Below are positions 3,502 through 57,284 of a stretch of 64,000 bases of DNA, piece after piece. The stretch comes from Acidobacteriota bacterium. Lineage in GTDB: Bacteria; Acidobacteriota; Thermoanaerobaculia; UBA5066; Gp7-AA6. The stretch covers positions 6,712 to 70,711 of the forward strand of contig DAHUXD010000019.1 of NCBI GenBank assembly GCA_027307335.1, read 5' to 3'. Under the pieces are notes generated by a model. The model did no database searches. It worked only from the letters and a program-made list of their open reading frames with translations, and had not been told where the DNA came from. Both the position numbers and the translations under genes were made by a program. The stretch's first letter is position 1; each line of letters starts with the position of its first letter.

Positions 3502-3927
3502 GGCGAAGACGACGCTCACTTCGCCTCTCTTTCGGAAGAGGGTCTCGCCCGGCCTATCCGCGTCCAAAGCGCGGCGTGGGCCAGCGGTCGGCCGCGGCGC
3601 AATCGAGGCAGCGGAAGAAGAGGGTGGGCTGCTCGACCATGTCGCGCGACGCGGCGCCGCAGGCGCGGCACGAAAAGGCGCGAAGGCGCACCGCCTGCGC
3701 CTTCAGGCGGACGACGCGCGGCTCCTCGACCGGGACCACCCGGCCGTGCGGGTCGCACGTGCAGCCGTCGCCCGGAGAGTGCACAGCGTCCGCGTCGTCG
3801 CGGCACCACCTCTGCCGGCACCAGGCTCCCGGGAAGACCGCCTCGCCCATGAGATGAGGATGCGCTGCCCGGGTGGACACATGATGTCCGGCCGAAGGTT
3901 GGTATCGTCCTTGCGGGAGGCTCGGGC

Positions 3928-10487: not shown

Positions 10488-12932
10488 CCGCAGCGCGTTG
10501 ACGACCACCAGCAGCGAGCTCGCCGACATCCCGAGCGCGGCGGCCCACGGCGGCACGCGGCCCGCGGCCGCGAGCGGCACGGCCAGGACGTTGTAGGCGA
10601 GCGCCCAGATCAGATTCTGGACGAGCACGTGCTTCGCCCGTCGGGCGATCCCGCGCGCCCGGGCGAGCGCGTCGAGTCCGCGGCCGAGCAGCAGGAAGTC
10701 GCTCGAGGCGCGGGGCGCGCGGGGCGCCTCGGCGAGCGAGACCGAAACGGAGGCGCCTGCGAGCGCCGGCGCGTCGTTCCAGCCGTCGCCGACGAAGAGG
10801 ACCCGGTCGCCCGCCCGAGCGCGCTCGCCGACCCAGGTGAGCTTGTCCGCGGCGGACATTCCGCCGAGGGCTTCGTCGAACCCCAGCGCGCGGCCGATGC
10901 GCGCGGCGCGTTCGGGAGTGTCGCCGGAGAGGAGCGCGACGCGGCGCAGGCCCTCCGCCCGCAGCGCCGCCGCGATCCCGCCGGCGTCGTCGCGCCAGCG
11001 CTCCGCGAGGGCGAAGACGGCGCCGCGGCCGTGCGCGTCCTCGAGCACGACCGGCAGCAGTCCGTCGTCGCGCGCGCGATCGATCGCCGCGATCGCGTCC
11101 GCCGGAAGCTCCGCGCCGGCGGAAGCGAATTCGGGCGTGCCGATTCGCCACCGCTCGCCGTCGACATCTCCGGCGATTCCTTCTCCCGCGGTTTCCGCGG
11201 CGCGGACCGCCGTGGCCGGCGCTCCCGAGTGAGCGGCCGCGATCGCCCGCGCGGCCGGATGCGTCGAGACCGTCTCGAGCGCCGCCGCGATGCGGAGGGC
11301 CTCCGCCTTCGTGAGGCCGCCGAACGCGTCGACGCGTTCGAGGGACGACGTTCCCGCGGTGAGCGTGCCCGTCTTGTCGAAGACCGCGACGTCCGCGGCC
11401 GCGAGGCGCTCGAGCGCGTCGCCGCGCGTTGAGAGGACCCCGATCGCGGTCAGCCGACCCGCCGTGATCGCGAGCGCCACGGGCGCGGCGAGCGCGAGCG
11501 CGCAGGGGCACGTCACGATCAGCACCGCGATGGTCGCGGGCAGCGCGCTCGCCGGCGTCAGGATGAGGCGTCCGGCGAGCGTGGCGGCCGCGGCCACGAG
11601 CACGGTCACGACGAGGACGGCGGCGGCGCGGTCGGCCAGGAGGACGTAGGGAGGCCGGTTCGCGAGGCCTCGCTCGACCAGCCGGCGGATCTGTGCGAGC
11701 GCCGAGTCTCCGGCCGCGGCCGTCACGCGGAGGACTACGGGCGCTCCGCGCGCGACGCTCCCCGCGGCGACCGTCTCTCCCGCCGCCCGCCGCCGGGGCC
11801 AGGGCTCCCCGGTCAGGACCGCCTCGTCGAGCTCCGCGACGGCGAGGAGGACGCCGTCCGCCGGCACGGTCTCGCCCGGAGGGACGCGGATGCGGTCGCC
11901 CGGCGCGAGCGCCGACGCGGGGACCCGCGCCTCGCGTTCTCCCGCGTCGAGGCGTCTGGCGAACGATGCCGACACCGCCGCGTACCGATCGAGGCCCGCC
12001 GCGGCGCGCGTGCGCGCGCGGGTCTCGAACGCGCGCGCGAGGAGCACGGCCGGTACGAGCATCCCGATGGCGTCGAAATACACCGGTCCCGAACCGCCCA
12101 CGGTCGCGACGGCGCTCGCGGAAAACGCCGCGGCGAGGCCGATCGCGATCGGCACGTCCATGCCGGCGCGGCGGTTCCGCAGATCGCGCGCGGCGCCCGA
12201 GAAGAACTCCCGACCGGGATAGAGAAGGAGCGCGAGGGCGGCCGCGAGGCAGCTCCAGCGGGCGTACGTCTCCCAGAGCGGCAGGCGTCCCGCGGCGTCG
12301 GGGCCGCCGACGAGGTACGCCGCGAGCGCGAGGTTCATGACCATCATGCCGACGAAGCCGGCGAAGATCAGCCGGGCTCCGTCATGGCGACGCGCCTCCG
12401 CGTCGAGGCCTTGGCGGTGGCCCGGGTCGACGGGGCGCGCGCGGTAGCCGATCCGCCGCACGGCGGCGAGGATCTGTGCGAGCGCGACCCGTTCCGGGTC
12501 CCAGCGCACCCGAACCGTCTGCGCGGTCCAGTTCGCCTCGGCCGAGGCGACGCCGTCGAGCGCGCGCAGGCGCGACTCGTTCAGCCACAGGCACGCGGGG
12601 CAGCGCGCGCCGTCGAGGTAGAGGCTCGCCTCACGCAGCGCCCCGTGCCACGCCGGCGCGAGCGCCTCGTCCGCGAGCGCGTCGCCCTCGGTATCGTCAT
12701 CGCCAACGACCGGCGGCGGAGCCGGGTCGGTGCGCAGACGGTAATAGTCGTCGAGACCCTCGGTGGCGATCGTCTCGGCGATCGCCCGGCAGCCGGCGCA
12801 GCAGAAGTCGCGCGGCGCGCCGAGGACGACGGCGCGCCAGAGGGCGCGTTCGGGCACCGGAAGACCGCAGTGATAGCAGTCGGCCGCCGCGCTCTCGGGA
12901 GCCGGTACCGCCGCGCTCATGCTCCCGAGCAT
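10464..12932 (-). CDS. Copper-translocating P1B-type ATPase (CcoI/FixI-like)
   Basis: N-terminal CYHCGLP metal-binding motif, CPC motif (TCPCALALA), DKTGTLT phosphorylation site and GDGWNDAPAL. Confidence 0.85.
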   Translation of the reverse strand: MLGSMSAAVPAPESAAADCYHCGLPVPERALWRAVVLGAPRDFCCAGCRAIAETIATEGLDDYYRLRTDPAPPPVVGDDDTEGDALADEALAPAWHGALREASLYLDGARCPACLWLNESRLRALDGVASAEANWTAQTVRVRWDPERVALAQILAAVRRIGYRARPVDPGHRQGLDAEARRHDGARLIFAGFVGMMVMNLALAAYLVGGPDAAGRLPLWETYARWSCLAAALALLLYPGREFFSGAARDLRNRRAGMDVPIAIGLAAAFSASAVATVGGSGPVYFDAIGMLVPAVLLARAFETRARTRAAAGLDRYAAVSASFARRLDAGEREARVPASALAPGDRIRVPPGETVPADGVLLAVAELDEAVLTGEPWPRRRAAGETVAAGSVARGAPVVLRVTAAAGDSALAQIRRLVERGLANRPPYVLLADRAAAVLVVTVLVAAAATLAGRLILTPASALPATIAVLIVTCPCALALAAPVALAITAGRLTAIGVLSTRGDALERLAAADVAVFDKTGTLTAGTSSLERVDAFGGLTKAEALRIAAALETVSTHPAARAIAAAHSGAPATAVRAAETAGEGIAGDVDGERWRIGTPEFASAGAELPADAIAAIDRARDDGLLPVVLEDAHGRGAVFALAERWRDDAGGIAAALRAEGLRRVALLSGDTPERAARIGRALGFDEALGGMSAADKLTWVGERARAGDRVLFVGDGWNDAPALAGASVSVSLAEAPRAPRASSDFLLLGRGLDALARARGIARRAKHVLVQNLIWALAYNVLAVPLAAAGRVPPWAAALGMSASSLLVVVNALRLADRRRA

Positions 12933-12968: not shown

Positions 12969-15806
12969 TCAGGGAGCCGACGGGAAGGTCTTGACGATGA
13001 GCGCCGCGGCCTGGCCGCGCGTGACCGGGTTTTCCGGACAGAAGTTGCCGCCCCCGCAGCCTCCGGTGATGCCCTCCTGGGCGGCCGCCTCGATGTAGTC
13101 GGCCGCGAAGGAGTCGGCGGGCACGTCCCCGAAGACGGTACCCGTCGCCGGCGGCGGCAGGTACCCCGGTCCGTGCTCGGCGCGCAGCAGGAAGACCATC
13201 ATCTGGGCGCGGGTCACCGGCGAGAGCGGACAGTAGTCCGGATACCCGCAGCCGGCGGTGATCTGGTCGAGGAGGAACTGCTGAATGTACGGACCGAAGC
13301 CCGAGCAGCGATCGACGTCGGCCATGGGAAGCGTCTGGTTCGGGCCGCCGAAGACCGGATCGAAGGGGTAGCCCGCGCCGCGCATCGCCTTCTCGACCTG
13401 CACCGCGGCCTGACCGCGGTTGAGCGGCGTGCCCGGGCAGAAGTTCCCGCCGCCGCAGCCGCCGGTGACGGCGCGCTGCGTGAGCGCGACGACGCTCTCG
13501 TGGAACGGAGACGCCGGCGGAACGTCGGCGAAGTCGAAGACGAACGCGCGCAGGGAGTCCTGCTGCGGCTCGCCCGTCACGACCTTCACCGCGACGGCGC
13601 CGGCGGCGCCGGCGGGCGTGATCGCGGCGATGTGCGTGTCGTCCACCACCGCGAAGTCGGCGGCGGCGGTCTGCCCGAAGAAGAGGCCGACGACGGACGC
13701 GAAGCCGGTGCCGGAGACGATGACGAGGGAGTCCCCGGAGGCCGGGCCGGAGGGCGGCGCCACGCCGGCGATCGACGGCGGCGGCGTGGCGGACCGGTGG
13801 ATGTGAAAGACGCTGCCGAATCCGGCGAGGTGCAGGAGGCTGCCGTCGCTCGCGATGGCGAGGCTCGAGCCGTTGTCGTTGTCGACGGTCGGAAGCCCGC
13901 GGTCGTACGGGCTCCACGTGAGTCCCGCGTCGGTGCTGACGTACACCGCCCGGCCGTCCGGCGAGAGCGGCAGATTCGTGGCGGCGTAGGCAGTCGAGGG
14001 ATTCGCGGGGTCGAAGACGATCGAAAGGATGCCGTTCGTCTGCGGCATCCCGGAAAACGAGGGCTGCCAGCTCGCGCCGCGATCGGCGCTGCGGTATAGG
14101 GGAGCGATCATCGTGACCGGGTTCCCGCCCCCGCCGCCGAGCATCAGGTTCGGGTCGGTGGGACTCTGGGCGAAGGCGGTCAGCTGCGCCCCCCCGAGAC
14201 CCGTGTCCGACGGACTCCAGGTCGCGCCGTGGTCGGTGCTCACCTGATTCAGCCCGTCCACGAGGCCGTAGAGGCGCCCGTCGACCGTCGCGTCCGCCAT
14301 CATCCAGTCGACGAAGTACGTGCCCGAGCTCGCGGGTGCCCAGGAGTCACCGCCGTCGTCGGAGAAGTAGAGATGGTTGGCGAGCACGTAGACGCGCCCG
14401 GCATCGGTCGGGGGCACGACGAACTCGGTGGCGTCGATGGCCGCACCCGCCGGAAGCGCTCCGGTGGCCGTCCAGCTCGCGCCCGCGTCGGTGCTGCGGT
14501 AGATGCCGCCGCGGTCCATGAGGCAGACGTAGACGGTCTCGGGCGACCCGGGCTGCACGGTCATTGCGGTGATCCGGCCGGTCGGCAGGTCGGTGGAGAC
14601 GTTCGCCCAGGTCGCCCCGGCGTCGAGGCTCCGGAAGACGCCGGCGCCGCCTCCCCAGGGATTCGCATACCAGAGCGTCGCGTCCGCGGCCGGATCGACG
14701 ACGACCCATCCGAAGAGCAGACCGGCGAACGCCTCGCCGGGGCCGGTCCAGGTGGCGCCGCCGTCCGTCGTCCGGAAGACGCCGTTGCCGGCGGAGCCCG
14801 CGAACCAGAGGCCCGCAGCGGCTCCCGGCACGAGCGCGCTCGGTGCGATCGACGGCAGTCCGACGTTGACCGGCGACCAGGTGGCGCCAGAATCCGTGCT
14901 CACGCGGACCCCTCCGGTCATGCTCAAGACGTAGACCCCGGGGCCGAACGGATCGATCGCGACGCCGATGTACGCCTCGCTCGGAAGGGTCGCGACGGCA
15001 TCCCAGGTCACGCCACCGTCGGCGCTGCGGAAGACGGCGCCGCTCGATTCCCCGGTGATCTCGTTGAAGGAGTTGGCCGCTGCCCAGGCGACGAGCGGGT
15101 CGGCGGGGTTGACCGCCACCTGGGACACGTTCTGCGCGAGCGGCGCGAACAGGACCGATGTCCACTGATCGCCCCCGTCGACGCTGCGAAAGAGGCCGTG
15201 GCCCTGCATGTTGGCGAAGAGAATCCGGCCGTCAGCGGGCGAGACGCCGAGGGAAGTGATGCCGAACTGACCCGGCGGAAGGCCCTCGTTGGCGGCCGCG
15301 TTCCACGAACAGCCGCCGTCGTCGGTTCTCCAGACGCCGGCGAGCGTGGCGGCGTAGACGGTCGACGGGGCCTGCGGATCGACCACGATCGCGTACGCTT
15401 CCTCGTAGGCGCTCGTCGGATTGACGATGTCCTGAGAGACCCAGTGATCCCCTCGATCCGTCGACTTTGCGACGAAGGAGCTGTACGTCGAGGCGTACAG
15501 CGTCGAGGGCGACGTCGGGTCGATCGCGAGTCCCGTGATCCACCGCGCCGGCAACCCCGTGTCGATCGTCGTCCACGTCTGGCCGCCGTCCGTCGAGCGG
15601 AAGACGCCCGCGTACTGCGCGGCCGCGTAAACGACTTGCGGGTTCGTCGGGTCGGCCACGAGCGCCGGCACGGCGCCGGCCCAGGGCCCGGTCGTCGTCC
15701 ATTCGTTGACGCCGCCGCGCGCCGTCACGGCGGCGGCGAGACAGACGGCGAAGCCCGCGAACGCCCGGAGCCCCGGGGCCCGAACCGCCCGAATTGTGCG
15801 AATCAT
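12969..15806 (-). CDS. Large secreted BNR/Asp-box repeat (beta-propeller) surface protein with an IPT/TIG domain and a C-terminal triple SLH-like module
   Basis: Has a signal peptide (MIRTIRAVRAPGLRAFAGFAVCLAAAV), more than 10 SxDxGxTW repeats, and three C-terminal repeats of F.DVP...GITGGCGGGNFCP..VTRGQ. Confidence 0.75.
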   Translation of the reverse strand: MIRTIRAVRAPGLRAFAGFAVCLAAAVTARGGVNEWTTTGPWAGAVPALVADPTNPQVVYAAAQYAGVFRSTDGGQTWTTIDTGLPARWITGLAIDPTSPSTLYASTYSSFVAKSTDRGDHWVSQDIVNPTSAYEEAYAIVVDPQAPSTVYAATLAGVWRTDDGGCSWNAAANEGLPPGQFGITSLGVSPADGRILFANMQGHGLFRSVDGGDQWTSVLFAPLAQNVSQVAVNPADPLVAWAAANSFNEITGESSGAVFRSADGGVTWDAVATLPSEAYIGVAIDPFGPGVYVLSMTGGVRVSTDSGATWSPVNVGLPSIAPSALVPGAAAGLWFAGSAGNGVFRTTDGGATWTGPGEAFAGLLFGWVVVDPAADATLWYANPWGGGAGVFRSLDAGATWANVSTDLPTGRITAMTVQPGSPETVYVCLMDRGGIYRSTDAGASWTATGALPAGAAIDATEFVVPPTDAGRVYVLANHLYFSDDGGDSWAPASSGTYFVDWMMADATVDGRLYGLVDGLNQVSTDHGATWSPSDTGLGGAQLTAFAQSPTDPNLMLGGGGGNPVTMIAPLYRSADRGASWQPSFSGMPQTNGILSIVFDPANPSTAYAATNLPLSPDGRAVYVSTDAGLTWSPYDRGLPTVDNDNGSSLAIASDGSLLHLAGFGSVFHIHRSATPPPSIAGVAPPSGPASGDSLVIVSGTGFASVVGLFFGQTAAADFAVVDDTHIAAITPAGAAGAVAVKVVTGEPQQDSLRAFVFDFADVPPASPFHESVVALTQRAVTGGCGGGNFCPGTPLNRGQAAVQVEKAMRGAGYPFDPVFGGPNQTLPMADVDRCSGFGPYIQQFLLDQITAGCGYPDYCPLSPVTRAQMMVFLLRAEHGPGYLPPPATGTVFGDVPADSFAADYIEAAAQEGITGGCGGGNFCPENPVTRGQAAALIVKTFPSAP

Positions 15807-18098: not shown

Positions 18099-19577
18099 TC
18101 AGGTCGCCTTGCCGGCGCCCTCCTTCAGGACCTTCGCGTACCACTGCTTCGCGAAGAGCGGCCGGATCTTCGTTCCCGTCGGTCCGATCTCGACACCCAC
18201 GATCAGGATGCCCTGCTCGAACAGGAAGGCGCCGTCGTTCGTCTTCCCGTCGTGGTCGTACTGGCCCTGCACCCGGAACTTGCCGCCGGTCGCCTCGAGC
18301 TCGCGCACCCGGATCTCTCCCGGCGCGGCGGTGACCGCGGCCCCGGCGCTGAGGTCGTCGAGGCTCACGAGTCCCTTCGTCCACGCGGGCAGGTCGACGT
18401 TCAGGAGCGCGAGCAGGGGACGCGCGTCCCGGCAGTGCGCCTCGATGCGGCCGGACGCGGCGCGGCCGATCTTCGCCTGGGGCGCCTCGAACGTGCCCCA
18501 CCACTCCCGCGCGTCGGCCGCGCCGCTCCCGTGGACGTGGGCGAGCGCGACGCGCATGCCGGAAGCATCGAAGGACAGGGGTCCGGTGACGTCCCAGCGG
18601 CGGATCGGGACGCTCGCGTCGAGGTCGCCCGTCAGACGATAGGTTCGCGTGCGGGCGGCGCCGCCGCGCACCGTGAGCGTCACCTTCCCGTTCGCGACGC
18701 CCTCCTCCGATGCGATCGACACGGTTGCCTTCGGACCGTTGCCCTCGAGGCGCACGCCTTCCGGGAAGCGCACGTACTCCTCGATCGCGTGGAGGGCGTC
18801 GGTCGCGAGGTCGATGTCGAGCTGGACGCGGAACTCCCGCAGCGCCCGGGGCATGGGGGCGTTGATGGGCTCGAACGCTCGCGAGGACGTCGCGAGCTTC
18901 CCGGAGAGGGCGACGCGGTCGGGCGAGCGCCCGACGGTCAGCGCCCCGCCGTCCCACTGGAGCACCGCGTCCTCGATCTGCGCGAGGCGCGTCGGCCAGA
19001 GATAGAAGCCGCCAGAGACGCGCGCGGGGCCCCGGTAGTGGAGCTGGTTGACCCAGAGGCTCTCGGCGCGATCGATCGAGACGCCCCGCACGTCGATGTG
19101 AAACGGGTTCGACTCGACGCGGAACTCCTGGCCCGGCTCCTTCAGCGGCGGGTCGGAGAAGCCCGGGATCGGAGGCAGGAGAGGCACGTCCGCCGTCTTG
19201 ACCTGGCCGGGCTCGAGCTTCGAGCGCAGCGCGAACGAGAGGCCGGAGCCGACGAGCCGCGTGCAGCGGAACGTGCGGTGGAGCAGCGCCACGATCGAGT
19301 AGTCGAGCTCGGCCTGCTCGAGATCGATCGCCCACTGCACGTTGGGATCGCTGCCCCGAAGCGAGAGATTGCGCAGCCGCACGTGGCCGGGCCGCGTCGA
19401 CACGGCCTCGCCCCAGTCGATGCGGAAGCTCTGGGGATGCGCGTTGATGATCGCGCGCAGCTTCGGTCCCGAAAGGAGCCAGCGCGTCAGCGGGAAGTAC
19501 GCGGCGTAGAACGCGACCGGCAGGAGGAGGACGAGACCGAGGAGCCACGCGACGAGCCGTCGGCGTCGGCCCCTCAC
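18099..19577 (-). CDS. Hypothetical protein with N-terminal signal-anchor and a large extracytoplasmic domain
   Basis: Starts MRGRRRRLVAWLLGLVLLLPVAFYAAYF; 492 aa; not Arg/Pro-biased. Confidence 0.55.
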   Translation of the reverse strand: MRGRRRRLVAWLLGLVLLLPVAFYAAYFPLTRWLLSGPKLRAIINAHPQSFRIDWGEAVSTRPGHVRLRNLSLRGSDPNVQWAIDLEQAELDYSIVALLHRTFRCTRLVGSGLSFALRSKLEPGQVKTADVPLLPPIPGFSDPPLKEPGQEFRVESNPFHIDVRGVSIDRAESLWVNQLHYRGPARVSGGFYLWPTRLAQIEDAVLQWDGGALTVGRSPDRVALSGKLATSSRAFEPINAPMPRALREFRVQLDIDLATDALHAIEEYVRFPEGVRLEGNGPKATVSIASEEGVANGKVTLTVRGGAARTRTYRLTGDLDASVPIRRWDVTGPLSFDASGMRVALAHVHGSGAADAREWWGTFEAPQAKIGRAASGRIEAHCRDARPLLALLNVDLPAWTKGLVSLDDLSAGAAVTAAPGEIRVRELEATGGKFRVQGQYDHDGKTNDGAFLFEQGILIVGVEIGPTGTKIRPLFAKQWYAKVLKEGAGKAT

Positions 19578-19700
19578 GAGGACGTTTTCCGGGGATCCAG
19601 GGCGCCGAGGCGGCGGTGCGTTTCAACGGGCACGCACGGATCTTAGGCAAGGGACGGGCCAAGACCCGGCGTCTCGACCGGAAAACTCGAAAAAGGCTGC

Positions 19701-20324
19701 CTAACGAAGGCCGCGCGCTTCGAGCTTCGAGCTTCGGATTTCTCTCTGGGCGACGGCGTCCACCCGGCGAGCGGTCCACACCAGCCGGTACGGCGCCGGG
19801 CCGAGGAAGTGAAAGGGATAGCAGGTGACGAGCGTCAGCCGATCTCCCGGGAGCGGGGAAATCGCGCCGAGGTCGTCGGGCTTCACGACTCGTCGGCTCT
19901 CGAGGCGGTAGGTGGCGGCGAGGCCGCCGCCGTGCAGCGTCACGACGTCGCCGGCCCGCGCTCCCTCGAGCCGGCGGAAGAACGTGTCCCGGTGCGCGGA
20001 GATGACGCACGACGACGGCGCGCCGTCGCCGGGCCAGCCGGTTCCACGGAGGTGGCCCGGGCCCTTGCGGAGGGTCTCGTCGGACGTGCCCTCGAAAACG
20101 ACGGCGTCGAGCCCCACGCGGGAGAGCGTCAGTCGTCCGAGCGGCTCGCCTTCGCGCCGGGCCGCGCGGGTCGCCGGAGGGGCGTCGGTTTTCGCGACGA
20201 GTGCGGCCGCGCCGTGCTCCTGGGCGCGCGCAGCGATCCACCAGTGCATCGCGGGCGGGACGAGCAAGAGAGCGCCCGCGAGGATCAGCAGGTCGCCGAG
20301 AGAGCGGAGATACCAGGCGCGCAT
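19701..20324 (-). CDS. Sortase-family transpeptidase
   Basis: N-terminal TM helix, catalytic His in ISAHRDTFF, Cys in LTLVTCYPF, and Arg in YRLVWTARR. Confidence 0.65.
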   Translation of the reverse strand: MRAWYLRSLGDLLILAGALLLVPPAMHWWIAARAQEHGAAALVAKTDAPPATRAARREGEPLGRLTLSRVGLDAVVFEGTSDETLRKGPGHLRGTGWPGDGAPSSCVISAHRDTFFRRLEGARAGDVVTLHGGGLAATYRLESRRVVKPDDLGAISPLPGDRLTLVTCYPFHFLGPAPYRLVWTARRVDAVAQREIRSSKLEARGLR

Positions 20325-20390
20325 CGGATCACCGCGCTTCCGGAGCAGCGGCCGACCCGGGAAGGGCCGGCCGCGAGCCCGGAAACCGCC

Positions 20391-20999
20391 TCAGAAGAAG
20401 CGGCGAGCGAGGAGCCCGCCGGCGATGAGGGCCAGACCGGCGGCCGCGTAGAGCGGGTCGGCGGTGGCCGTCTTCGGCATCTCGACGGGAGCCGGCGCGG
20501 GCGGAGCCGGCGGCGGAACCGCGGCCGGAACATGGGCCGGCGGCGGAACCGGACGGGGCTTGTACACCGTCACGTTCGGGGGCTGCGCCGGAGGCGCCAC
20601 GGCCACGAAGCTGATCTCCTTGCGATCGAACACTTCTCCCGCGCGGTTGATGGCGAGGAAGGTGAGCTTGTGCGGTCCGGGCGTCACGTTCTCGAGCGTG
20701 ACGATGTTGTTCTCGTCCCGCATCCGTCCCTGGCGCGAGTCATCGAGGAACACCTGGACGTCCGGACGCGGCATGGTGTTGACGTCGCGACGCACGTCGT
20801 TGTCGCCCGGGATCTCGGTGTTCACGATGACCTGCACGGTCGGGCCAGTCACCGTTGCGCCTTCGACCGGCTGCATGATCTTGAGGCGGTAGTCGTTGTG
20901 CGTTGGACCGCCCCCATAGACGTTGGCGTTCTGGGCCCAGACGAACGCTGCGGCCGCCAGCCCCAGAACCGCGGCGGCGATCGTTTTGAGGTGTCTCAT
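20391..20999 (-). CDS. Secreted sortase-substrate candidate with an MPKTATA sorting signal
   Basis: Signal peptide MRHLKTIAAAVLGLAAAAFVWAQ, a ~150-aa domain, a Pro-rich linker, then MPKTATADP followed by a hydrophobic segment and RRFF. Confidence 0.65.
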   Translation of the reverse strand: MRHLKTIAAAVLGLAAAAFVWAQNANVYGGGPTHNDYRLKIMQPVEGATVTGPTVQVIVNTEIPGDNDVRRDVNTMPRPDVQVFLDDSRQGRMRDENNIVTLENVTPGPHKLTFLAINRAGEVFDRKEISFVAVAPPAQPPNVTVYKPRPVPPPAHVPAAVPPPAPPAPAPVEMPKTATADPLYAAAGLALIAGGLLARRFF

Positions 21000-21228
21000 C
21001 GGAACCTCCTCCTGACGTGCCGGCCCACCTGCCGGCCACGATGGAAATTGGATCAGTTCGCGACCCCTCCCCGAATCTTCCAGACGCATCAATTCCCTTG
21101 GCCGGCTGGCGGCGATGGCGACGCCAAGTCGCGGCAGCGGCGGTACTTGCAATCCCATGGTGCGGATACATCAGGCGCGGGCGCGGCGCGCATGCGAGTC
21201 TTCTCCCGCAGACAGGAGGGTGCTCTTC

Positions 21229-21480
21229 ATGGCAATGGTGATTCGCGAGGACTGCATCAACTGCGGCAGCTGCGAGCCGAGCTGCCCGAACACGGCGATC
21301 TCGGCGGGCGAGAACATCTACCTCGTCGACCGCGAGCGTTGCACCGAGTGCGTCGGCGCGTTCGACGAGCCGCAGTGCGTGGGCGCGTGCCCGATCGAGG
21401 GATGCATCACGCAGGACACGGAGAACCCCGAGTCCCGCGAGGCGCTCCTCGCGCGGTACCAGCAGCTCCACCCGAACTAG
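21229..21480 (+). CDS. 2x[4Fe-4S] ferredoxin
   Basis: CINCGSCEPSCP and CTECVGAFDEPQCVGACP motifs. An AGGAGG-like RBS lies upstream. The start was chosen at MAMVIRED rather than the ATG at 21115. Confidence 0.7.
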   Translation: MAMVIREDCINCGSCEPSCPNTAISAGENIYLVDRERCTECVGAFDEPQCVGACPIEGCITQDTENPESREALLARYQQLHPN

Positions 21481-21508
21481 ACGACGGCTCGCGCGCCTCG
21501 GCGCCGCG

Positions 21509-23323
21509 TCAGAATCCCGGCGGACGCTCCCCGGCCACGCCGAAAGCGCGCTCCAACGCGATCCCGGCGGTCCCGATCGTCCCCTCGTCGAACATCCGGC
21601 CGATCAGGCACACGCCGTGCGGCACGCGGCGCGGCTTCGCGAAGGTCGGCATCGGGTTCTTCGGGTCCGGCGCCCAGTCGCTCCGCGCCTGCGTGACGCC
21701 GATGAAGCCGGCGCGCACGACGAGCGCGGGGTGCCCGGTGAAATTGGTGATCGTGAGGATCTCGTCGCGGAGCGACGGCACGAGCATCACGTCCACCTTG
21801 TCGAAGATGCGCTGCATCTCGATCGCGACCTTGCGGCGGAGCCGGTCCGCCTGGACGTAGTCGACTGCCGAGAGGAAGCGCGACTGGCGGAACGTGTTCG
21901 GCCACGCGTCGGGGACCTGCGCCTTCAGCTGATTCAGCCCTCCGGAGAGCGTCAGCTCCTCGAACGCGGCCGCGGCCTCGGCGAAGAGCACCGTGTTGAG
22001 CGACCCGTAGGGCCAGTCGGGGAGCGACACCTCGACCGTCTGCATGCCGAGCCGGCGCACCGTCTCGAGCGCGGCGCGGTCGACCTCGGTCGCCGGATCC
22101 TCCTGCATCCACCCGGGGATGAAGCCGACCCTCAGTCCCCTCACCGACCCCGAGGCGTCGAAGTCGAGGTGCGACGGCAGGCTCGACAGGTCGCCGGGGT
22201 CCGGGCCCGTGATCGCGGCGAGCACGAGCATCGTGTCCTCGACGCCGCGCGTCATCGGACCGAGCTTGTCGAGCGACCAGCAGAGCGTCATCGCGCCGGT
22301 GCGCGCGACGCGGCCGAAGGTGGGCCGCAGCCCGGCGAGGCCGCAGCGCATCGCCGGATCGACGATCGAGCCGCCGGTCTCGCTGCCGATCGAGAACGAG
22401 ACGAGGGCGGCGGCGGTCGACGCTCCCGGTCCCGCGCTGGAGCCGCCGGAGCCTTCCTCCGGCAGCCACGGGTTCATCGTCTGTCCGCCGAACCAGATGT
22501 CGTTGAGCGCGAGCGCGCCGAGCGACAGCTTCGCGAGGAGCACGGCGCCGGCGTCGTACAGCCGCTGGACCGCGACGGCGTTCGCGTCGGGGACGCGGTT
22601 GCGGTAGGGCTCGGCGCCGTACGTCGTGAGGATGCCCTTCGTGTCGAGGAGGTCCTTCACGCCGAACGGAATCCCGTGCAGCGGCCCGCGGTGCCTGCCG
22701 GCCGCGATCTCCGCGTCGGCGCGGCGGGCCTGCTCGAGCGCGAGATCCGGCGTGCGCGTGATGATGGCGCGCAGCCTCGGATCGAGGCGGTCCATGCGGG
22801 CGAGATAGATCTTCGTGAGCCGCTCGGAGGAGAGCGCCCGCGACTCGATCCAGCGCGACTGCTCGGCGACGGTGGCGTACGCGATGTCCTCGTCCTTCGA
22901 GGGCAGCGGCCGGACGGGACCGGGGGAGCGCACGAAGCGGTTCTTCGAGGGCCCCGGCGAGACGCCCGGGATCAGAGGGTCCCAGCGCGAGGCGGGCGCG
23001 AGCGTCGTGTCGAAGCTAACCTTGCGGGGCCCCGTCCGCCGCTCCATCGTCGCCGCCATCGACTGCCGCCAGTTCGAGGCGATCTGTTCCTTCTCGGGTG
23101 GCGTGAACTCGATGCGGACGAGCTTCTCGGCCTCCGAGATCGTGGCGACGCCGATCTCCGGGCCGACCGGAGGCGCCGTGCCGAAGGCCGGCGGCGTTCC
23201 GGCGGCGGTGGACGGCGTCGGCTGAGGAGAGGGCTGCTGCTCTCCGATGACCTTGCCGGCGGCCGCGGCGCCGACGAGTCCGGCGGCGGTCCGCGCGAGG
23301 AAATCCCGGCGGGATTCCGACAT
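21509..23323 (-). CDS. Amidase (amidase-signature family) with a Tat signal peptide
   Basis: Starts MSESRRDFLARTAAGLVGAAAAG (twin-arginine motif) and has a GGSSAGPGA... AS-family Ser-cisSer-Lys region. Confidence 0.75.
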   Translation of the reverse strand: MSESRRDFLARTAAGLVGAAAAGKVIGEQQPSPQPTPSTAAGTPPAFGTAPPVGPEIGVATISEAEKLVRIEFTPPEKEQIASNWRQSMAATMERRTGPRKVSFDTTLAPASRWDPLIPGVSPGPSKNRFVRSPGPVRPLPSKDEDIAYATVAEQSRWIESRALSSERLTKIYLARMDRLDPRLRAIITRTPDLALEQARRADAEIAAGRHRGPLHGIPFGVKDLLDTKGILTTYGAEPYRNRVPDANAVAVQRLYDAGAVLLAKLSLGALALNDIWFGGQTMNPWLPEEGSGGSSAGPGASTAAALVSFSIGSETGGSIVDPAMRCGLAGLRPTFGRVARTGAMTLCWSLDKLGPMTRGVEDTMLVLAAITGPDPGDLSSLPSHLDFDASGSVRGLRVGFIPGWMQEDPATEVDRAALETVRRLGMQTVEVSLPDWPYGSLNTVLFAEAAAAFEELTLSGGLNQLKAQVPDAWPNTFRQSRFLSAVDYVQADRLRRKVAIEMQRIFDKVDVMLVPSLRDEILTITNFTGHPALVVRAGFIGVTQARSDWAPDPKNPMPTFAKPRRVPHGVCLIGRMFDEGTIGTAGIALERAFGVAGERPPGF

Positions 23324-23480
23324 GGAGGGCCTCCTTGGGGGCGGATCGTATCCGAGCCCTCTGCCGTGGGAGGCCGGGGACCTGTCAGAAGCTCTGCCGC
23401 GCCGCTCAGCGCCGCGGTGTCGGCGCACCTCGCCCAGGCGCTCCCCGATCCGGTCGAACGGCGCGAGGTCGCGGAAATCT

Positions 23481-23524
23481 GACTTCCAGGAATTTGAAAC
23501 TCACACATTCAGAGACCTGACCCC
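23481..23524. repeat. Partial copy (loop plus right arm) of a ~66-bp palindromic repeat element
   Basis: GACTTCCAGGAATTTGAAACTCACACATTCAGAGACCTGACCCC matches the right half of the copies at 24775 and 57217. Confidence 0.6.
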
Positions 23525-23577
23525 ATTGGAAAATCGCATCTGGCGGGGCCGAACGGCTTCGTGGCAGTCTTTCTTCG

Positions 23578-24798
23578 ATGGCGCGGCACGACGTGATCGT
23601 GGTGGGCGGGGGCGTGAGCGGGACGGCGTTCGCCTTCCACGCCGCGCGCGGGGGGCGGAGCGTGCTCCTGCTCGAGCGCGAGGAGCGGTTCGGCGGCTGC
23701 CTCCACACGGAGCGCGGACCGGGCGACTTCTGGTTCGAGCTCGGCGCGCACACCTGCTACAACTCGTACGGAGCGCTCATCGAGATGCTCGAGGGCTGCG
23801 GCCTCATGGGCTCGCTCCAGCCACGCGCGAAGCCGGTGCTCCGCTTCCTCGACGGCGACCGCGTGCTGCCGGGACAGAACCTCGGGCTGCTGGTGCGCCT
23901 GATGGACAAGTTCGAGCTCGCGCGATCGCTGCCGCACGCCTTCGGCGCGCGCCAGGACGGCCGGACCGTGCGCGCGTACTACGCGTCGATCGTGGGTCCG
24001 AAGAACTACGAGCGCGTCCTCGGACCGATGCTGTCGGCCGTTCCGTCGCAGAAGGCCGACGACCTGCCGGCCGAGATGCTCTTCAAGAAGCGGCCTCGAC
24101 GAAAGGACGTGATCCGGAGCTTCACCCTGCGGGGAGGACTTCAGCGCGTCTGCGAGGCGGCGGCGGCGACGCCCGGAGTGACGTCGCGCCGCGGCGCGGC
24201 GGTGGACGCCGTCGAGAAGACCGTGGCGGGCTTCGCGGTGACGCTCGGCGACGGCACGCGCGAGGAGGCGGGCATCGTCGCGATCGCGACCCCTCCCCGC
24301 GCGGCGGCCGCACTCCTGCGCGAAGGCCTGCCGGAGCTCGCGGGGCGACTCGCCCGGGTCCGCGAAACCTCGGTCGACACGCTCGCGATCGTCCTGCGGG
24401 CGGCGAAGGCGGGACGCGTGCCGCCGTCGACGTTCCTCATTCCCCGGTCGGATGCGTTCTTCTCGGTCGTCACGCGCGACGTCGTTCCCGACGCGACCTT
24501 CCGCGCCTTCACGTTTCACTTCCGGCCCGGCCAGTCCGCCGAGGACCGGATGCGGCGGGCGACGCGGCTCCTCGGCGTGGAGCCGCGGGACCTCGACGCC
24601 GCGGTCGAGCGCCGGACGGTCCTGCCGTCGCCCGTCGTCGGGCACCGGGAGATCGTCGCCGAGCTCGATCGCCTTCTCGCGGGCTCCGACCTCGCGCTGA
24701 CCGGGAACTGGTTCGGGGGACTCTCGATCGAGGACTGCATCCTGCGCTCGCGCGCAGAGTGGGAGCGGATCTCTGGGGTCAGGTCTCTGAAAATGTGA
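23578..24798 (+). CDS. FAD-dependent oxidoreductase (amine oxidase/protoporphyrinogen oxidase-like)
   Basis: N-terminal VIVVGGGVSGTAFAFHAA dinucleotide-binding motif. The last six codons and the stop lie inside the palindromic repeat. Confidence 0.7.
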   Translation: MARHDVIVVGGGVSGTAFAFHAARGGRSVLLLEREERFGGCLHTERGPGDFWFELGAHTCYNSYGALIEMLEGCGLMGSLQPRAKPVLRFLDGDRVLPGQNLGLLVRLMDKFELARSLPHAFGARQDGRTVRAYYASIVGPKNYERVLGPMLSAVPSQKADDLPAEMLFKKRPRRKDVIRSFTLRGGLQRVCEAAAATPGVTSRRGAAVDAVEKTVAGFAVTLGDGTREEAGIVAIATPPRAAAALLREGLPELAGRLARVRETSVDTLAIVLRAAKAGRVPPSTFLIPRSDAFFSVVTRDVVPDATFRAFTFHFRPGQSAEDRMRRATRLLGVEPRDLDAAVERRTVLPSPVVGHREIVAELDRLLAGSDLALTGNWFGGLSIEDCILRSRAEWERISGVRSLKM

Positions 24799-24840
24799 CT
24801 TCCAATAATTTGGAACTCACACATTCAGAGACCTGACCCC
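24775..24840. repeat. 66-bp palindromic repeat element (full copy)
   Basis: GGGGTCAGGTCTCTGAAAATGTGA-CTTCCAATAATTTGGAAC-TCACACATTCAGAGACCTGACCCC. The 24-bp arms are near-perfect inverted repeats around a nested TTCCAA/TTGGAA stem. Confidence 0.7.
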
Positions 24841-26237
24841 TAGTGTCCTTTTCCGTACGCCTCGACGTCCGCGAGCATGCGGTCGAGGTCGGCGCGCGAG
24901 AGATAGCGGCCGTTCGCGACGACGCCGGCGATCCGGCGCGTGCGGCTCACGTCCTCGAGCGGATTCGCGTCGAGGAGGACGAGGTCGGCGATCTTCCCCT
25001 TCTCGACGGCGCCGAAGTCGGCGGTGCGCCCGAGGAAGCGCGCCGGATCGAGTGTCGCCGTCCGCAGCGCCTCGAGCGGCGTGAAGCCCGCCGCGACGAA
25101 ACGTTCGAGCTCGTGATGGAGGCTCGGTCCCGGAATCACGTCGACGCCCGCGGGCGTGTCGGTTCCGGCGAGGAAGGGCACGCCGGCGCGCTGGAGCCGC
25201 GCCACGATCTCGAGCTCGTGCGCGACGAACTTCTCGCGCACCGGCAGCGGATCGGTGTCCATCGTCTTCGCGATGTCCGCGGCGAACCTCGGCCAGGTCT
25301 TCTCGCGCCACGAGGCGGGCGCCCAGCGCAGGTCGGGGTCCCTGGAGATTTCGATCGCGTCGACGAGCCACTGGCCGCGCTCCCAGAAGAGCGTCGGACA
25401 CTGCCAGGTGCGATTCCTGGCGAGGCGCGCGATCAGCCCGGCTTCGAGGGAAGGATCGTAAGTCTCGAGAAAGCGCCCCGGCCCCTTGGGATCACCCTTC
25501 ACGAAAGCGTCCTCCGACGGCGAGCTGCCCTCGAAGACGCCGATCAGGTGCTCGAAGCTCGCCTGGCCCGCGTCGGAGGCGTCGGCGGCCCGGACGGCGT
25601 CCGGCACGTGGCCTTCGAACGGAATCTTCCGGCGCCGGCACTCTTCGGCGACGGCGAAGTACACGTCGCGCGGCACGTACGACTGGATCTTGATGAAGTC
25701 GACGCCGCGCTCCTGGAGCATCGCGACGGCGCGGCGCCCGTCGTCCGGCGTCGCGAGCTTGATGGAGGCGGGGAACGGCGACTTCGGTCCGTCGAGCATC
25801 GGCCCGGAGACGACGAGCCGCGGACCGGCCAGCCGCCCCGCCGCGATGTCGGCCCGCGCGGCGAGGATCGGATCGAGATCGCTGCCCATGTCGCGGGCTC
25901 CCGTCACGCCGTGCGCGAGCAGCAGCGACAGCGTGACCTCGCGGCCGCCCGGCACCCAGTCGCCGAAGAAGGAGTGGATGTGCATGTCCCAGAGGCCGGG
26001 CATGACGAAGCGGAAGGAGGCGTCGACGAGGCGCGCGCCCGGCGGGATCACCGCGGACGCGGCGGGCGAGACGTCCACGATGCGCTCGCCTCGGATCACG
26101 ACGGTCCGGTCCGGGAGCACGGCGCCGGTCGCCATGTCGATGACCGAGACGTGCGTCAGCGCGAGCGCGGACGGCGCCGTCGCCGGGGCCGCCGCCTGGG
26201 TCAGCGCGAGGAGGAGCGCGAGCGGCGTCGGAAACAT
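24840..26237 (-). CDS. Amidohydrolase-family metal-dependent hydrolase with a signal peptide
   Basis: The HIH metal-ligand motif (DMHIHSF) plus later H and D ligands. Starts MFPTPLALLLALTQAAAPA. Confidence 0.7.
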   Translation of the reverse strand: MFPTPLALLLALTQAAAPATAPSALALTHVSVIDMATGAVLPDRTVVIRGERIVDVSPAASAVIPPGARLVDASFRFVMPGLWDMHIHSFFGDWVPGGREVTLSLLLAHGVTGARDMGSDLDPILAARADIAAGRLAGPRLVVSGPMLDGPKSPFPASIKLATPDDGRRAVAMLQERGVDFIKIQSYVPRDVYFAVAEECRRRKIPFEGHVPDAVRAADASDAGQASFEHLIGVFEGSSPSEDAFVKGDPKGPGRFLETYDPSLEAGLIARLARNRTWQCPTLFWERGQWLVDAIEISRDPDLRWAPASWREKTWPRFAADIAKTMDTDPLPVREKFVAHELEIVARLQRAGVPFLAGTDTPAGVDVIPGPSLHHELERFVAAGFTPLEALRTATLDPARFLGRTADFGAVEKGKIADLVLLDANPLEDVSRTRRIAGVVANGRYLSRADLDRMLADVEAYGKGH

Positions 26238-26239
26238 CG

Positions 26240-26932
26240 CTATACCGGGATCGCCGCGCCGCGGATCAGGCGCGCGTCGTCGCCGCACAGAAAGAGGATG
26301 ACGCCCGCGATCTCCTCCGGCTTGGGCCACTTCGAGAAGTCCGCCTTCGGCATCGCGCGGCGGTTCGCCTCGGTGTCGATGATCGACGGCAGGACCGAGT
26401 TTGCGCGCACGTTCGTGCCCGCCAGGTCCGCCGCGAGCGAGTCGACGAGCGCGACCGCGGCCGCCTTGGAGACCGCGTACGCGGCGAGCCCGGCGCCGTG
26501 GTCGACGGCCGCGCGGGACGCGACGTTGACGATCGCGCCGCCCCCCCGCGCCAGCATCGCCGGCACGGCGGCGCGGCAGAGCACGAGGCCCGAGCGGAGG
26601 TTCAGGTCGAGCATCCGGTCGAACGTCTTCGCGTCCGTCTCCCAGAGCTTCGTGCCGCCCGCGAAGCCGCCCACGCAGTTGACGAGCGCGTCGAGGCGGC
26701 CGAGCTCGTTCACGAGGCGCCGCACCGCGGACTCGTCGGTGACATCGACGGCGTGGCCCGACAGGCGCCCGCGCGCCGCATCGCCGGCGGCGGCTTCGAG
26801 GGCGGCGTATTCGTCGGGGTTCCGGTACGTGACGGCGACCCGGGCGCCGGCCTCGAGGAAGGCGAGCGCCACCGCCTTTCCGAGCCCTCCGGTGCCGCCC
26901 GCGACGAGGACGACCTCGCCGGCTCGCGTCAT
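26240..26932 (-). CDS. SDR-family oxidoreductase
   Basis: GGTGGLGKA cofactor motif and the YAVSK catalytic motif. Confidence 0.75.
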   Translation of the reverse strand: MTRAGEVVLVAGGTGGLGKAVALAFLEAGARVAVTYRNPDEYAALEAAAGDAARGRLSGHAVDVTDESAVRRLVNELGRLDALVNCVGGFAGGTKLWETDAKTFDRMLDLNLRSGLVLCRAAVPAMLARGGGAIVNVASRAAVDHGAGLAAYAVSKAAAVALVDSLAADLAGTNVRANSVLPSIIDTEANRRAMPKADFSKWPKPEEIAGVILFLCGDDARLIRGAAIPV

Positions 26933-30365: not shown

Positions 30366-31235
30366 ATGCCCGAAGGCAACACCATTCACTGGCTGGCGCG
30401 CGTGCACACGCGCGACTTCGCGGCACGCCGGGTGCGCGCCGACTCGCCGCAGGGCCGCTTCGCCCGCGAGGCGCGGCGGCTCGACGGCCGTCTCTTCGAA
30501 TCCGCGGAGGCCTACGGCAAGCACCTCTTCCACCACTGGAGCGGCGGACTCGTGGTCCACGTGCACCTCGGGATGGCAGGTTGGTTCTACCGGCACCCCG
30601 CCCCGGCGCCGCCGCCGCGGCCGACCGTCCGCCTGCGCCTGGCGACTCGAGACGTCGCGACGGACCTGATCGGGCCGCCGACGTGCGAGCTGATCCCGGA
30701 GTTCGCGCGCCGGAAGCTTCTCGCGCGTCTCGGCCCCGATCCGCTGCGTCGGGACTTCGACCCGGATCGCGCGCTCGCCGAGCTCGTCCGGCGGCCGCGC
30801 CGCACGATCGGCGACGCCCTCCTCGATCAGCGCGTCCTCGCCGGTGTCGGCAACATCTATCGCGCCGAGGCGCTGTTCCTGACCGGCATCCACCCGAAGC
30901 GGGCGTCCGGGAACGTCTCGGCGGAGGAGTGGGAACGCCTCTGGAAGACGGTGCGCGCGCTCATGCGGCGCGGCGCCGTGCGCGGCCGCATCCGGACGAT
31001 CGAACCGGACGAGCCTCCGGCGCATCCGCTCGCGGGGCGCGCACCCGCGGATGCCTTTTACGTTTACCAGCAGGCGATCTGTCGGCGCTGTGCCTCGCCG
31101 CTCGAGGAGTTCCCGATGTCCGCGCGCCGGATGTTCGCGTGTCCCCGCTGCCAGCCCGAGCCGCGTCGCGGCTCGAAGCGCCGCGCGAAAGAGAAAAACG
31201 GCCGCGATCGGAAACGCCGCGCCGCCGCTCCCTGA
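30366..31235 (+). CDS. Fpg/Nei-family DNA glycosylase (formamidopyrimidine/endonuclease VIII-like)
   Basis: N-terminal MPEGNT catalytic Pro2/Glu3, an H2TH region, and a C-terminal zinc finger CRRC...CPRC. Confidence 0.75.
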   Translation: MPEGNTIHWLARVHTRDFAARRVRADSPQGRFAREARRLDGRLFESAEAYGKHLFHHWSGGLVVHVHLGMAGWFYRHPAPAPPPRPTVRLRLATRDVATDLIGPPTCELIPEFARRKLLARLGPDPLRRDFDPDRALAELVRRPRRTIGDALLDQRVLAGVGNIYRAEALFLTGIHPKRASGNVSAEEWERLWKTVRALMRRGAVRGRIRTIEPDEPPAHPLAGRAPADAFYVYQQAICRRCASPLEEFPMSARRMFACPRCQPEPRRGSKRRAKEKNGRDRKRRAAAP

Positions 31236-31533
31236 CGCCGTTCTCCTTCGGGAGCGGTGAACGCCGGAAACGACAAAAACGGTGCGCGGCACGTCGTCGC
31301 CGTCGCGGCCAGGGAGCTCGAATCGTCGCAACCGGCATGCCACCAGGGACGACGGTGGGTGGCGCGCGCGTTCGCTCGTGACGTTGTGCGGCGCGGGTCG
31401 ATCCGGGTCGTCACGCCGGCGAGGGATACGAAATGAGAGACGACGCGCCGACCCGCCACCGAGAGCCTCCGAAGAGAAGCGAAACGGCTGCGGCCCCGCG
31501 GTGTCCGGGGGGCCGCATCCGTTGCGCTCGAAG

Positions 31534-50736: not shown

Positions 50737-51097
50737 TGGTGGAGGCGGCGGGAGTTGAACCCGCGTCCGGAAGCGCGACGGGAGAGGCCACTCCATGCTC
50801 AGCCTCTTCTTGGTTCTCGCCCCGCCGCCTCGAGAAGAGGCAAAACGGCGGAAGGGCAACCCCGGATTCGTTTCGCACGAGCGGCCGGGGGACCGCGCGC
50901 GCTACACCCGAATTTCGCGACGTCGGCCGGAGCGCGTCGGGTGCGCTCACCGTCCAACGAGGCTACTTAATTAAGCAGCCAGAGCGAAGTTGCTGTTGTT
51001 CGCAGCTACTATTTTTCACCCTGCTTTTACGAGGAGGGGTGAGACCTCGGCATGCAACCTCTCGCGCCGACGTCCCCGTCGAAGCCGTTTCGCCCCC
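50737..51097 (-). ncRNA. ssrA: tmRNA (SsrA)
   Basis: 5' end GGGGGCGAAACGGCTTCGACGGGGACG and 3' end GGACGCGGGTTCAACTCCCGCCGCCTCCACCA. The internal tag reading frame GCG AAC AAC AGC AAC TTC GCT CTG GCT GCT TAA gives ANNSNFALAA followed by a stop. Confidence 0.9.
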
Positions 51098-57176: not shown

Positions 57177-57216
57177 CCGGGAATCGCCGCCGATCAGGGC
57201 GACCCGGGAATTATAT

Positions 57217-57283
57217 GGGGTCAGGTCTCTGAATGTGTGACTTTCAAATTTCTGAAGATCACGCTTTCAGAGACCTGACCCCC
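57217..57283. repeat. ~66-bp palindromic repeat element (full copy)
   Basis: GGGGTCAGGTCTCTGAATGTGTGA-CTTTCAAATTTCTGAAGA-TCACGCTTTCAGAGACCTGACCCC, located between the panB start and the kinase stop. Confidence 0.7.
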
Positions 57284-57284
57284 T

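Follow-up and report, generated by a model that had tools for sequence, protein, structure and literature searches.

Palindromic doublets at gene ends of an acidobacterial genome as probable REP/REPIN-type elements linked to RAYT transposases

Introduction

Among described mobile systems, the TIRtrons come closest to the repeats analyzed here. In TIRtrons, genes resembling those of REP-associated tyrosine transposases (RAYTs; REP, repetitive extragenic palindrome), called TIRYT genes, sit between long terminal inverted repeats (TIRs) that share the motif GGGGWSAS (Di Nocera et al. 2013, PMC3733652). In some cases the gene's 3' end is overlapped by a repeat, and TIRs also form moderately abundant dispersed families, often as dimers; there is a sharply defined acidobacterial TIRYT group, and the TIRs of Koribacter ORF1552 constitute a repeat family (PMC3733652). 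Most TIRYTs belong to RAYT subclass 2.1, which is group 1 of Bertels (Quentin et al. 2018, PMC6006769) and is recognized by the signatures NH[YF]H, FQ (or W[EQ]) and Y[IV]HLNP/YIELNP and by a C-terminal helix-turn-helix (HTH) extension (PMC6006769). Repeat populations on the scale of REPINs, hairpins made of an inverted REP pair, have been reported only for RAYT groups 2 and 3, the 16-mers flanking group 1 genes having about 12 occurrences (Bertels et al. 2017, PMC5581495). Here, we describe a family of 66-nucleotide (nt) palindromic doublets found in a 64,000-nt stretch of an Acidobacteriota genome (assembly GCA_027307335.1, contig DAHUXD010000019.1, positions 6,712 to 70,711; Thermoanaerobaculia), referred to below as the window.

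We consider these repeats, with a probability of roughly 85%, to be non-autonomous mobile elements of the REP/REPIN type that are linked to a RAYT of the TIRYT or subclass-2.1-like kind, that is, an acidobacterial member of the REP/REPIN-RAYT ("TIRtron") systems. The resemblance to TIRtrons lies in a Y1 gene enclosed by long inverted repeats, in a 3' repeat that overlaps the gene end and in dispersed dimers. Additionally, the start of the arm, GGGGTCAG, fits the TIR motif GGGGWSAS (PMC3733652, PMC6006769). However, the arm beyond its first 8 nt and the host, a Thermoanaerobaculia-like acidobacterium of about 70% GC, differ from the published examples in the portions of the TIRtron literature considered here. 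The compact 66-nt doublets, with a hairpin as the unit and decaying singlets, are instead REPIN-like, a form not described for that RAYT group. As in the REPIN-RAYT systems of Pseudomonas and Enterobacteria (Bertels and Rainey 2011, PMC3116915; groups 2 and 3), an inverted pair with a spacer folds as a hairpin, single arms are decaying remnants, the elements are extragenic and without target-site duplication, and the same repeats border the RAYT gene, whose locus is syntenic and conserved (L028, L033 and L034). Unlike in those systems, the arm is not a clear palindrome, the RAYT of about 320 amino acids (aa) is of another group, the phylum is Acidobacteriota and the arms lack the GTAG/GTGG foot: they begin with (A)TGGGGTCAGG, and the foot of classical GTAG-REPs was present at neither end in the 36 arm ends read.

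Two complete doublets and one relic in the window

An earlier note on this DNA, made from the sequence alone, had proposed a palindromic family of three copies with inverted 24-bp arms. The 17-nt arm GGGGTCAGGTCTCTGAA matched exactly at five positions of the window (23508-23524 on the minus strand, 24775-24791 on the plus strand, 24824-24840 on the minus strand, 57217-57233 on the plus strand and 57266-57282 on the minus strand) against 0.10 expected, and five or more matches were obtained in 0 of 100 shuffles. A repeat search of the window yielded one three-member family consisting of two 66-nt palindromic doublets and a truncated copy. A covariance model built from the compact copies and run over the whole window matched copy 2 with 95.3 bits, copy 3 with 90 bits and copy 1 with 42.9 bits, and it found no fourth place, all remaining matches having E > 0.2. 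The proposed family and its coordinates are confirmed, with the small corrections given below.

Copy 2 (24775-24840) is a full doublet composed of a left arm (24775-24798), a center (24799-24816) and a right arm (24817-24840). Copy 3 is likewise complete, with arms at 57217-57240 and 57259-57282; its start and place had been given correctly, but it ends at 57282 and not at 57283. Copy 1 (23481-23524 on the plus strand, the start being approximate) is a truncated relic that retains the center and the right arm (23501-23524), the left arm having been deleted, and it matches the right two-thirds of copy 2 with 93% identity. We rejected the possibility that copy 1 is a full copy with a mutated left arm (13/18 matches, one base out of register): this likeness is due to chance, because alignment with the related locus L032 identifies the stretch as sequence of a major facilitator superfamily (MFS) transporter gene.

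Each complete element consists of two inverted arms of 24 to 30 nt, with the consensus (A)TGGGGTCAGGTCTCTGAAAATGTGAC(TTTG), separated by a short variable center. The inverted arms had been recognized in the earlier note, but the inner TTCCAA/TTGGAA stem that it placed between them belongs to copy 2 only, copy 3 having TTTCA/TGAAG. A single arm is not clearly an imperfect palindrome and has only a 4-bp TCAG/CTGA stem inside it. The RNA fold, which had been suggested as a check, showed the full copies to be near-perfect hairpins on either strand (-46 to -54 kcal/mol, z about -10 to -11; copy 2, -49/-54 kcal/mol, z about -11), and copy 2 folded as single-stranded DNA gave -28.7 kcal/mol (z -10.3). 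The GC content of the element is about 47 to 48%, versus about 70% for the genome.

The same arms flank RAYT genes in relatives

The link to a transposase comes from related sequences. Locus L028, from the same metagenome as most of the matches described further below, carries one arm at 982-1005 on the plus strand and two arms of opposite orientation at 1993-2016 and 2031-2054 on the minus strand, with a single gene enclosed. Its product, an open reading frame (ORF) of 323/336 aa, scored 102.9 bits with NCBIfam NF047646 'REP-associated tyrosine transposase' (cut-off, 80) and matched Pfam Y1_Tnp (9.8e-12), and its sole match among solved structures was PDB 4ER8, the Escherichia coli TnpA_REP (E 5e-4). 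One arm overlaps the stop codon of this RAYT gene, and the two opposite-orientation arms are upstream; the gene has 60% GC in a contig of 70% GC. The 323-aa protein harbors the motifs NHYH, FQ and YVVLNP, which match the subclass 2.1 signatures, and a long C-terminal extension. Judged from these motifs, it may belong to that subclass; Pfam detected no significant C-terminal HTH or DnaA_C domain in it.

The same layout was found in other samples at RAYT orthologues with 88% (L033), 63% (L034) and 56% (L035) identity, as well as at a homologue with 47% identity (L007), so that arms are inverted around a RAYT gene at five independent loci. The arm variant is specific to the lineage, and the two flanks of a gene carry the identical variant (TCTGTGAAAGTGTGA in L034 and TCTCTGGATTTGTGA in L035); the core GGGGTCAGGTCTC is retained down to 47% RAYT identity. 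In L007, from another Acidobacteriota metagenome-assembled genome (MAG), the RAYT gene has this 13-nt core on its two sides in three and five direct tandem copies (1354-1424 and 2420-2555), spaced about 25 to 30 nt, in place of single long arms. The 3' arm overlaps the RAYT gene end in every case, giving the arm-encoded tails TLSET*, TLSQT*, TNPET* and RGET* (the asterisk denotes the stop codon). L028, L033 and L034 further share their downstream neighbors, namely a small membrane protein, a T4_deiodinase-like gene and DUF2127, which suggests vertical inheritance of the RAYT locus.

Locus L035 harbors an extra arm (3870-3893), 6 kb from the RAYT gene, beside a 96-aa ORF (4171-4461) with a Bac_DnaA_C match and an IS110-family transposase gene. 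This ORF may be a C-terminal RAYT fragment or a second, decayed RAYT locus.

Filled and empty sites in related genomes

Copy 2 fills the entire space between two convergent genes, a flavin adenine dinucleotide (FAD)-dependent amine-oxidase/protoporphyrinogen-oxidase-like gene (23578-24798, plus strand; Pfam Amino_oxidase/NAD_binding_8) and an amidohydrolase gene (24840-26330, minus strand; Pfam Amidohydro_1), and the stop codons of both are drawn from it. The left arm (24775-24798) encodes the last seven codons of the oxidase, GVRSLKM, together with the TGA; the earlier note had rightly placed the last codons and the stop inside the repeat but had counted five residues (RSLKM). The third base of the amidohydrolase TAG stop codon (24842-24840) is the last base of copy 2 (24840).

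Four relatives carrying the oxidase locus were compared with the window, from which they diverge at 4-fold sites by 0.15 (L025, syntenic with 18319-25479 at 86 to 91% identity), 0.16 (L036), 0.26 (L037) and 0.29 (L032). The oxidase/amidohydrolase site is empty in L037 and L032: the oxidase has 401 aa and ends with EWERVSTR* or EWERVARR*, the spacer is 12 nt long and the amidohydrolase stop codon is TGA. In the window, L025 and L036, the site is filled by three variants of 66, 89 and 77 nt, respectively, with slightly different junctions. The outer arms of these variants (24775-24840 in the window, 6342-6430 in L025 and 2168-2237 in L036) are at consensus, and their centers are unrelated. Re-insertion, gene conversion or instability of the palindrome center could possibly account for three variants at one orthologous site. 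Owing to the absence of 10 nt (TAGTGTCCTT) in L025, the amidohydrolase gene there continues into the element.

Database homologues of the oxidase follow the same division. Those with at least 92% identity have 406 aa and repeat-encoded tails, some in another frame (SGGQVSQG*), whereas most of those with at most 89% identity have about 401 aa, and the C termini read among them end with EWERVARR*, EWERVSTR* and similar sequences. Orthologues at this lower identity do lack the tail, a point that the earlier note had left to be checked.

No target-site duplication was detected, since no 2- to 9-nt direct repeat was present at any junction inspected, by direct reading included. We also looked at the target itself. 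A pre-existing hairpin as insertion target was rejected, the empty sites of L037 and L032 folding no better than shuffles (z +0.5 and +0.6), and flanks oriented by arm asymmetry contained no clear conserved target tetranucleotide. T is preferred just outside GGGG, often as AT, and the flanks are generally AT-rich.

On the other side of the oxidase gene, the amidase/oxidase site contains an intact MFS gene in L032 and L037 (536-568 aa; 568 aa in L032), which has been lost in the window, L025 and L036. An 85-nt remnant of this gene in the window (23391-23475, plus strand; blastn, 83.5% over 85 nt to L032 9527-9610) directly abuts the truncated copy 1. Where the window has copy 1, L036 has a complete but mutating doublet with both arms; the half copy of the window is thus a doublet that lost its left arm in the deletion. 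The arms at this site differ by about 12 to 20% among three genomes, near the 4-fold-site divergence of 0.15 to 0.16 and about as much as neutral sites do. At the oxidase site, the arms of the window and L025 differ at 3 of 48 positions versus about 7 expected, which is not significant alone.

The third site of the window lies between a deoxynucleoside kinase gene (57285-57950, minus strand; Pfam dNK) and panB, coding for ketopantoate hydroxymethyltransferase (56259-57176, minus strand; Pfam Pantoate_transf), which is downstream of copy 3. It holds the element in L039 and L040 and unrelated sequence in L041. The Logan contig L039 (SRR10333321_74093), whose deoxynucleoside kinase is 100% identical to that of the window, breaks exactly at the end of copy 3 (10667-10732, corresponding to 57217-57282). 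Such a break is expected for a repeat and speaks indirectly for more than one copy in that genome.

The family outside the window

To follow the family further, we scanned Joint Genome Institute (JGI) metagenomes with the arm plus the inner GTGA as the query. This gave 12 further loci, of which a single sample, Ga0335076, contributed 10 (with ten contigs carrying exact arms). The outer 24 to 30 nt of each arm are conserved in these loci, and the centers vary from a short AT-rich palindrome, in 66-nt forms like those of the window, to GC-rich non-palindromic inserts, giving units of up to about 95 nt. The earlier note had stated that a lack of further copies and of arm conservation would speak against its proposal; more copies are present in relatives and metagenomes, and their arms are conserved.

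Many doublets pair one GAAAATGTGA-type arm with one GAATGTGTGA-type arm, which creates a 2x2 internal loop, and many also have a C/G asymmetry at arm position 15. The combination of arm types and the position-15 mismatch are inherited jointly in unlinked copies, which suggests that copying acts on the doublet and not on the single arm.

A scan of GTDB representatives with the 17-mer returned 19 single-arm matches, about the level expected by chance for 596 Gb. Real relatives among them were the Acidobacteriota MAGs L013, L007 and L016 and a Fimbriimonadaceae MAG with three matches, and one single-arm match in viral contigs was taken as chance. The sources named for close homologues of the proteins indicate Acidobacteriota, probably Thermoanaerobaculia. 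The elements of this Fimbriimonadaceae MAG (CAYONP01, Armatimonadota; L005 at 4217, L014 at 2055 and L019 at 2806) have GGGGTCAGGTCTCTGAATC as their outer 19 nt and terminate with ...GACCCC, with unrelated interiors, and probably represent another GGGGWSAS-type RAYT repeat family. No RAYT gene was found inside the 8-kb loci around the three elements.

Proposed mechanism and points against it

We propose that the arms are the recognition sequences of an HUH/Y1 RAYT and that either DNA strand would fold to a long hairpin. By analogy with E. coli TnpA_REP and IS200/IS605, the RAYT would recognize the folded single strand, cut it and join it. The analogy draws on what is established for HUH-Y1 enzymes, namely IS200/IS605 TnpA and the E. 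coli TnpA_REP bound to its REP hairpin, PDB 4ER8 (PMC6006769, PMC3116915). Acting in trans from elsewhere in the window's own genome, where a RAYT gene is presumably present, the mobilizing enzyme would disperse doublets to new extragenic places without duplicating the target.

Copies would then survive where genes stay undamaged, typically 0 to 4 nt from a stop codon or overlapping one. At least 12 of the copies examined are in such a position, which we attribute to survival only where genes were not destroyed. Additionally, direct reading of the arm reveals a stop codon in all three frames (GVRSLKM*, GSGL* and, in a longer read, an end in SET*), and this re-terminates a gene overlapped by the arm a few residues further on. 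Such re-termination would have produced the GVRSLKM* tail of the oxidase and the TAG stop codon of the amidohydrolase. A doublet that loses one arm, such as copy 1, would no longer fold and would decay neutrally.

Several points weigh against this proposal. A tblastn search found no RAYT gene in the 64-kb window, and the assignment of the cognate enzyme draws on relatives. The GTDB-representative scan gave no genome with many exact arms, and the arms lack the foot of classical REPs. What separates the filled from the empty oxidase sites is not a clean insertion but the replacement of about 23 nt, which means that the original insertion junction is not recoverable. To our knowledge, transposition has never been reconstituted for any RAYT, so that the copying step is an analogy. 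Finally, RAYTs of group 1 or subclass 2.1 are described as weakly or not associated with repeat populations (PMC5581495; PMC6006769).

We tentatively suggest, and would not rate it above an even chance, that the family represents a vertically inherited REPIN-RAYT partnership outside Proteobacteria, involving a subclass-2.1/group-1 RAYT, together with turnover at the level of the locus through repeated replacement, re-insertion or gene conversion. If this were true, the turnover at one site would not be simple descent, and the partner would be a RAYT group described as having no or weak repeat populations.

Alternative explanations

The first alternative, which we regard as improbable, is that the repeats are host regulatory hairpins, such as bidirectional terminators, stabilizers of the mRNA 3' end or protein-binding sites, that are kept at gene ends, their spread being secondary. 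REP hairpins are known to stabilize mRNA and to attenuate transcription (summarized in PMC3733652), the hairpins described here are very stable on both strands, and many copies are 0 to 4 nt from a stop codon or overlap one, often between convergent genes. By a rough estimate, the outer arms at the oxidase site have also stayed at consensus in three genomes while copy 1 decays. However, no U-tract follows any copy, 0 terminator-like sites were called in 23300-25000 and 57000-57500, and no Rfam family was found at the repeats at the gathering threshold. The hairpin stems showed no covariation beyond chance: 23 of 28 pairs are invariant and one is compensatory, a number matched or exceeded in 492 of 500 shuffles, so that this test offers no evidence for or against selection on structure. 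Furthermore, orthologous sites are empty in relatives that retain the same genes, and copies also occur upstream of start codons and at a deletion scar. A regulatory role is compatible with a secondary effect of the elements but not with their origin; a function as terminator or mRNA stabilizer is possible but unsupported.

We give a much smaller chance to a conventional miniature inverted-repeat transposable element (MITE), that is, a deletion derivative of an insertion sequence with a DDE transposase that moves by cut-and-paste or copy-paste via its TIRs and generates a target-site duplication. Long TIRs, a small element with a variable interior and a position outside genes would all fit, and the outer GGGGTC resembles the start of Tn3-family inverted repeats. 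Against this, the 2- to 9-nt duplication is missing from the flanks of every copy inspected, and the only transposase genes bounded by the arms, at the five independent loci, are Y1/RAYT genes, no DDE transposase having been seen beside an arm. The more specific idea of a Tn3-like TIR or Tn3-derived inverted-repeat miniature element (TIME), which came from GGGGTC and a GAAAA tract, was rejected, as there is no 5-bp duplication and the transposase is of the Y1 type. The earlier label of a REP/MITE-type intergenic element was therefore right in kind; since a target-site duplication is absent and relatives have Y1 (HUH) transposase genes between the arms, we refine it to a REP doublet of a RAYT/TIRYT system, not a DDE-type MITE.

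Lastly, copies 1 and 2 might delimit a composite transposon or an integron-like cassette, given that two family members bracket one 1.2-kb gene and that attC sites are also imperfect palindromes with variable centers that overlap gene ends, but this can be practically dismissed: the oxidase lies between the same amidase-side and amidohydrolase neighbors in L032 and L037 with a repeat on neither side, copy 1, a truncated relic, sits on the scar left by the loss of an MFS gene, direct reading of the arms (ends GGGGTCAG.../...CTGACCCC) shows no RYYYAAC/GTTRRRY core sites and no integrase is nearby. The bracketing of the oxidase gene is without cassette or composite-transposon meaning.

More distant systems and significance

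A doublet dispersed by a RAYT, the reading that we prefer, can also be set beside better-known small palindromes. With the E. coli REPs, their clusters (bacterial interspersed mosaic elements, BIMEs) and TnpA_REP (PDB 4ER8), the family shares an HUH-Y1 core of the enzyme, palindromic extragenic repeats near stop codons and a possible influence on mRNA. The E. coli repeats differ in that they are imperfect palindromes of 35 to 40 nt, rich in GC, that have a GTAG foot and occur in BIME clusters, and the identity between the enzymes is low. Rickettsia palindromic elements (RPEs), Correia elements and enterobacterial repetitive intergenic consensus (ERIC) sequences are similar in that they are small palindromes that can overlap coding ends and add residues or stop codons. 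However, RPEs insert in frame inside genes and are without a known transposase, Correia elements generate a TA duplication and contain promoter and integration host factor (IHF) sites, and none of the three shares the arms or the RAYT link.

The family belongs to the known REP/REPIN-RAYT kind; it is not a new element type and reveals no new mechanism. The hosts of REPIN-like populations are extended by a GC-rich acidobacterial lineage from soil, and the REPIN-like systems by a RAYT type considered poor in these repeats. The loci compared form a natural series for the origin, turnover and decay of RAYT-linked hairpins, in which an empty site, three filled variants, a doublet in decay and a half copy are represented. 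For annotation, the element accounts for three spurious ORFs, an oxidase longer by 5 residues, the changed stop codon of its neighbor and a pseudogene scar, as well as contig breaks in short-read assemblies of this lineage.

Flanking genes and artefactual ORFs

The positions of the copies relative to their neighboring genes had been described correctly. Copies 1 and 2 flank the oxidase gene, copy 1 being located between this gene and a divergent amidase gene (Pfam Amidase). Copy 3 is located between panB and the deoxynucleoside kinase gene, both on the minus strand and supported by Pfam; it lies upstream of panB, starting 2 nt past the stop codon of the kinase gene. The ORFs whose products begin with MCEFQI or MCDFQI (22972-23508, minus strand; 24516-24824, minus strand, MCEFQI; and 57233-57487, plus strand) are artefactual, as had been suspected: they start at an ATG within a repeat arm, and the genes that they overlap, in a different frame or on the opposite strand, are supported by Pfam.

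Alignment with the element-free locus L041 indicates that the true start of panB is probably a GTG near 57134. A perfect TATAAT on the panB strand directly follows copy 3 (57210-57215, minus strand), and GTATAAT is kept in L041; judged from the sequence, it is a candidate -10 box for panB, for which a promoter scan called no -35 partner.

Other features of the window

An Rfam scan of the window returned two RNAs only, both away from the repeats: a full-length tmRNA gene (50737-51097, minus strand; 177 bits) and a CyVA-1 RNA motif (31219-31292, minus strand; 52.8 bits, gathering score 41.4). At 12987-15608 and 44473-46411, the coding sequence contains tandem repeats that have diverged (periods of about 135 to 190 nt), and they probably encode repeat-domain surface proteins.

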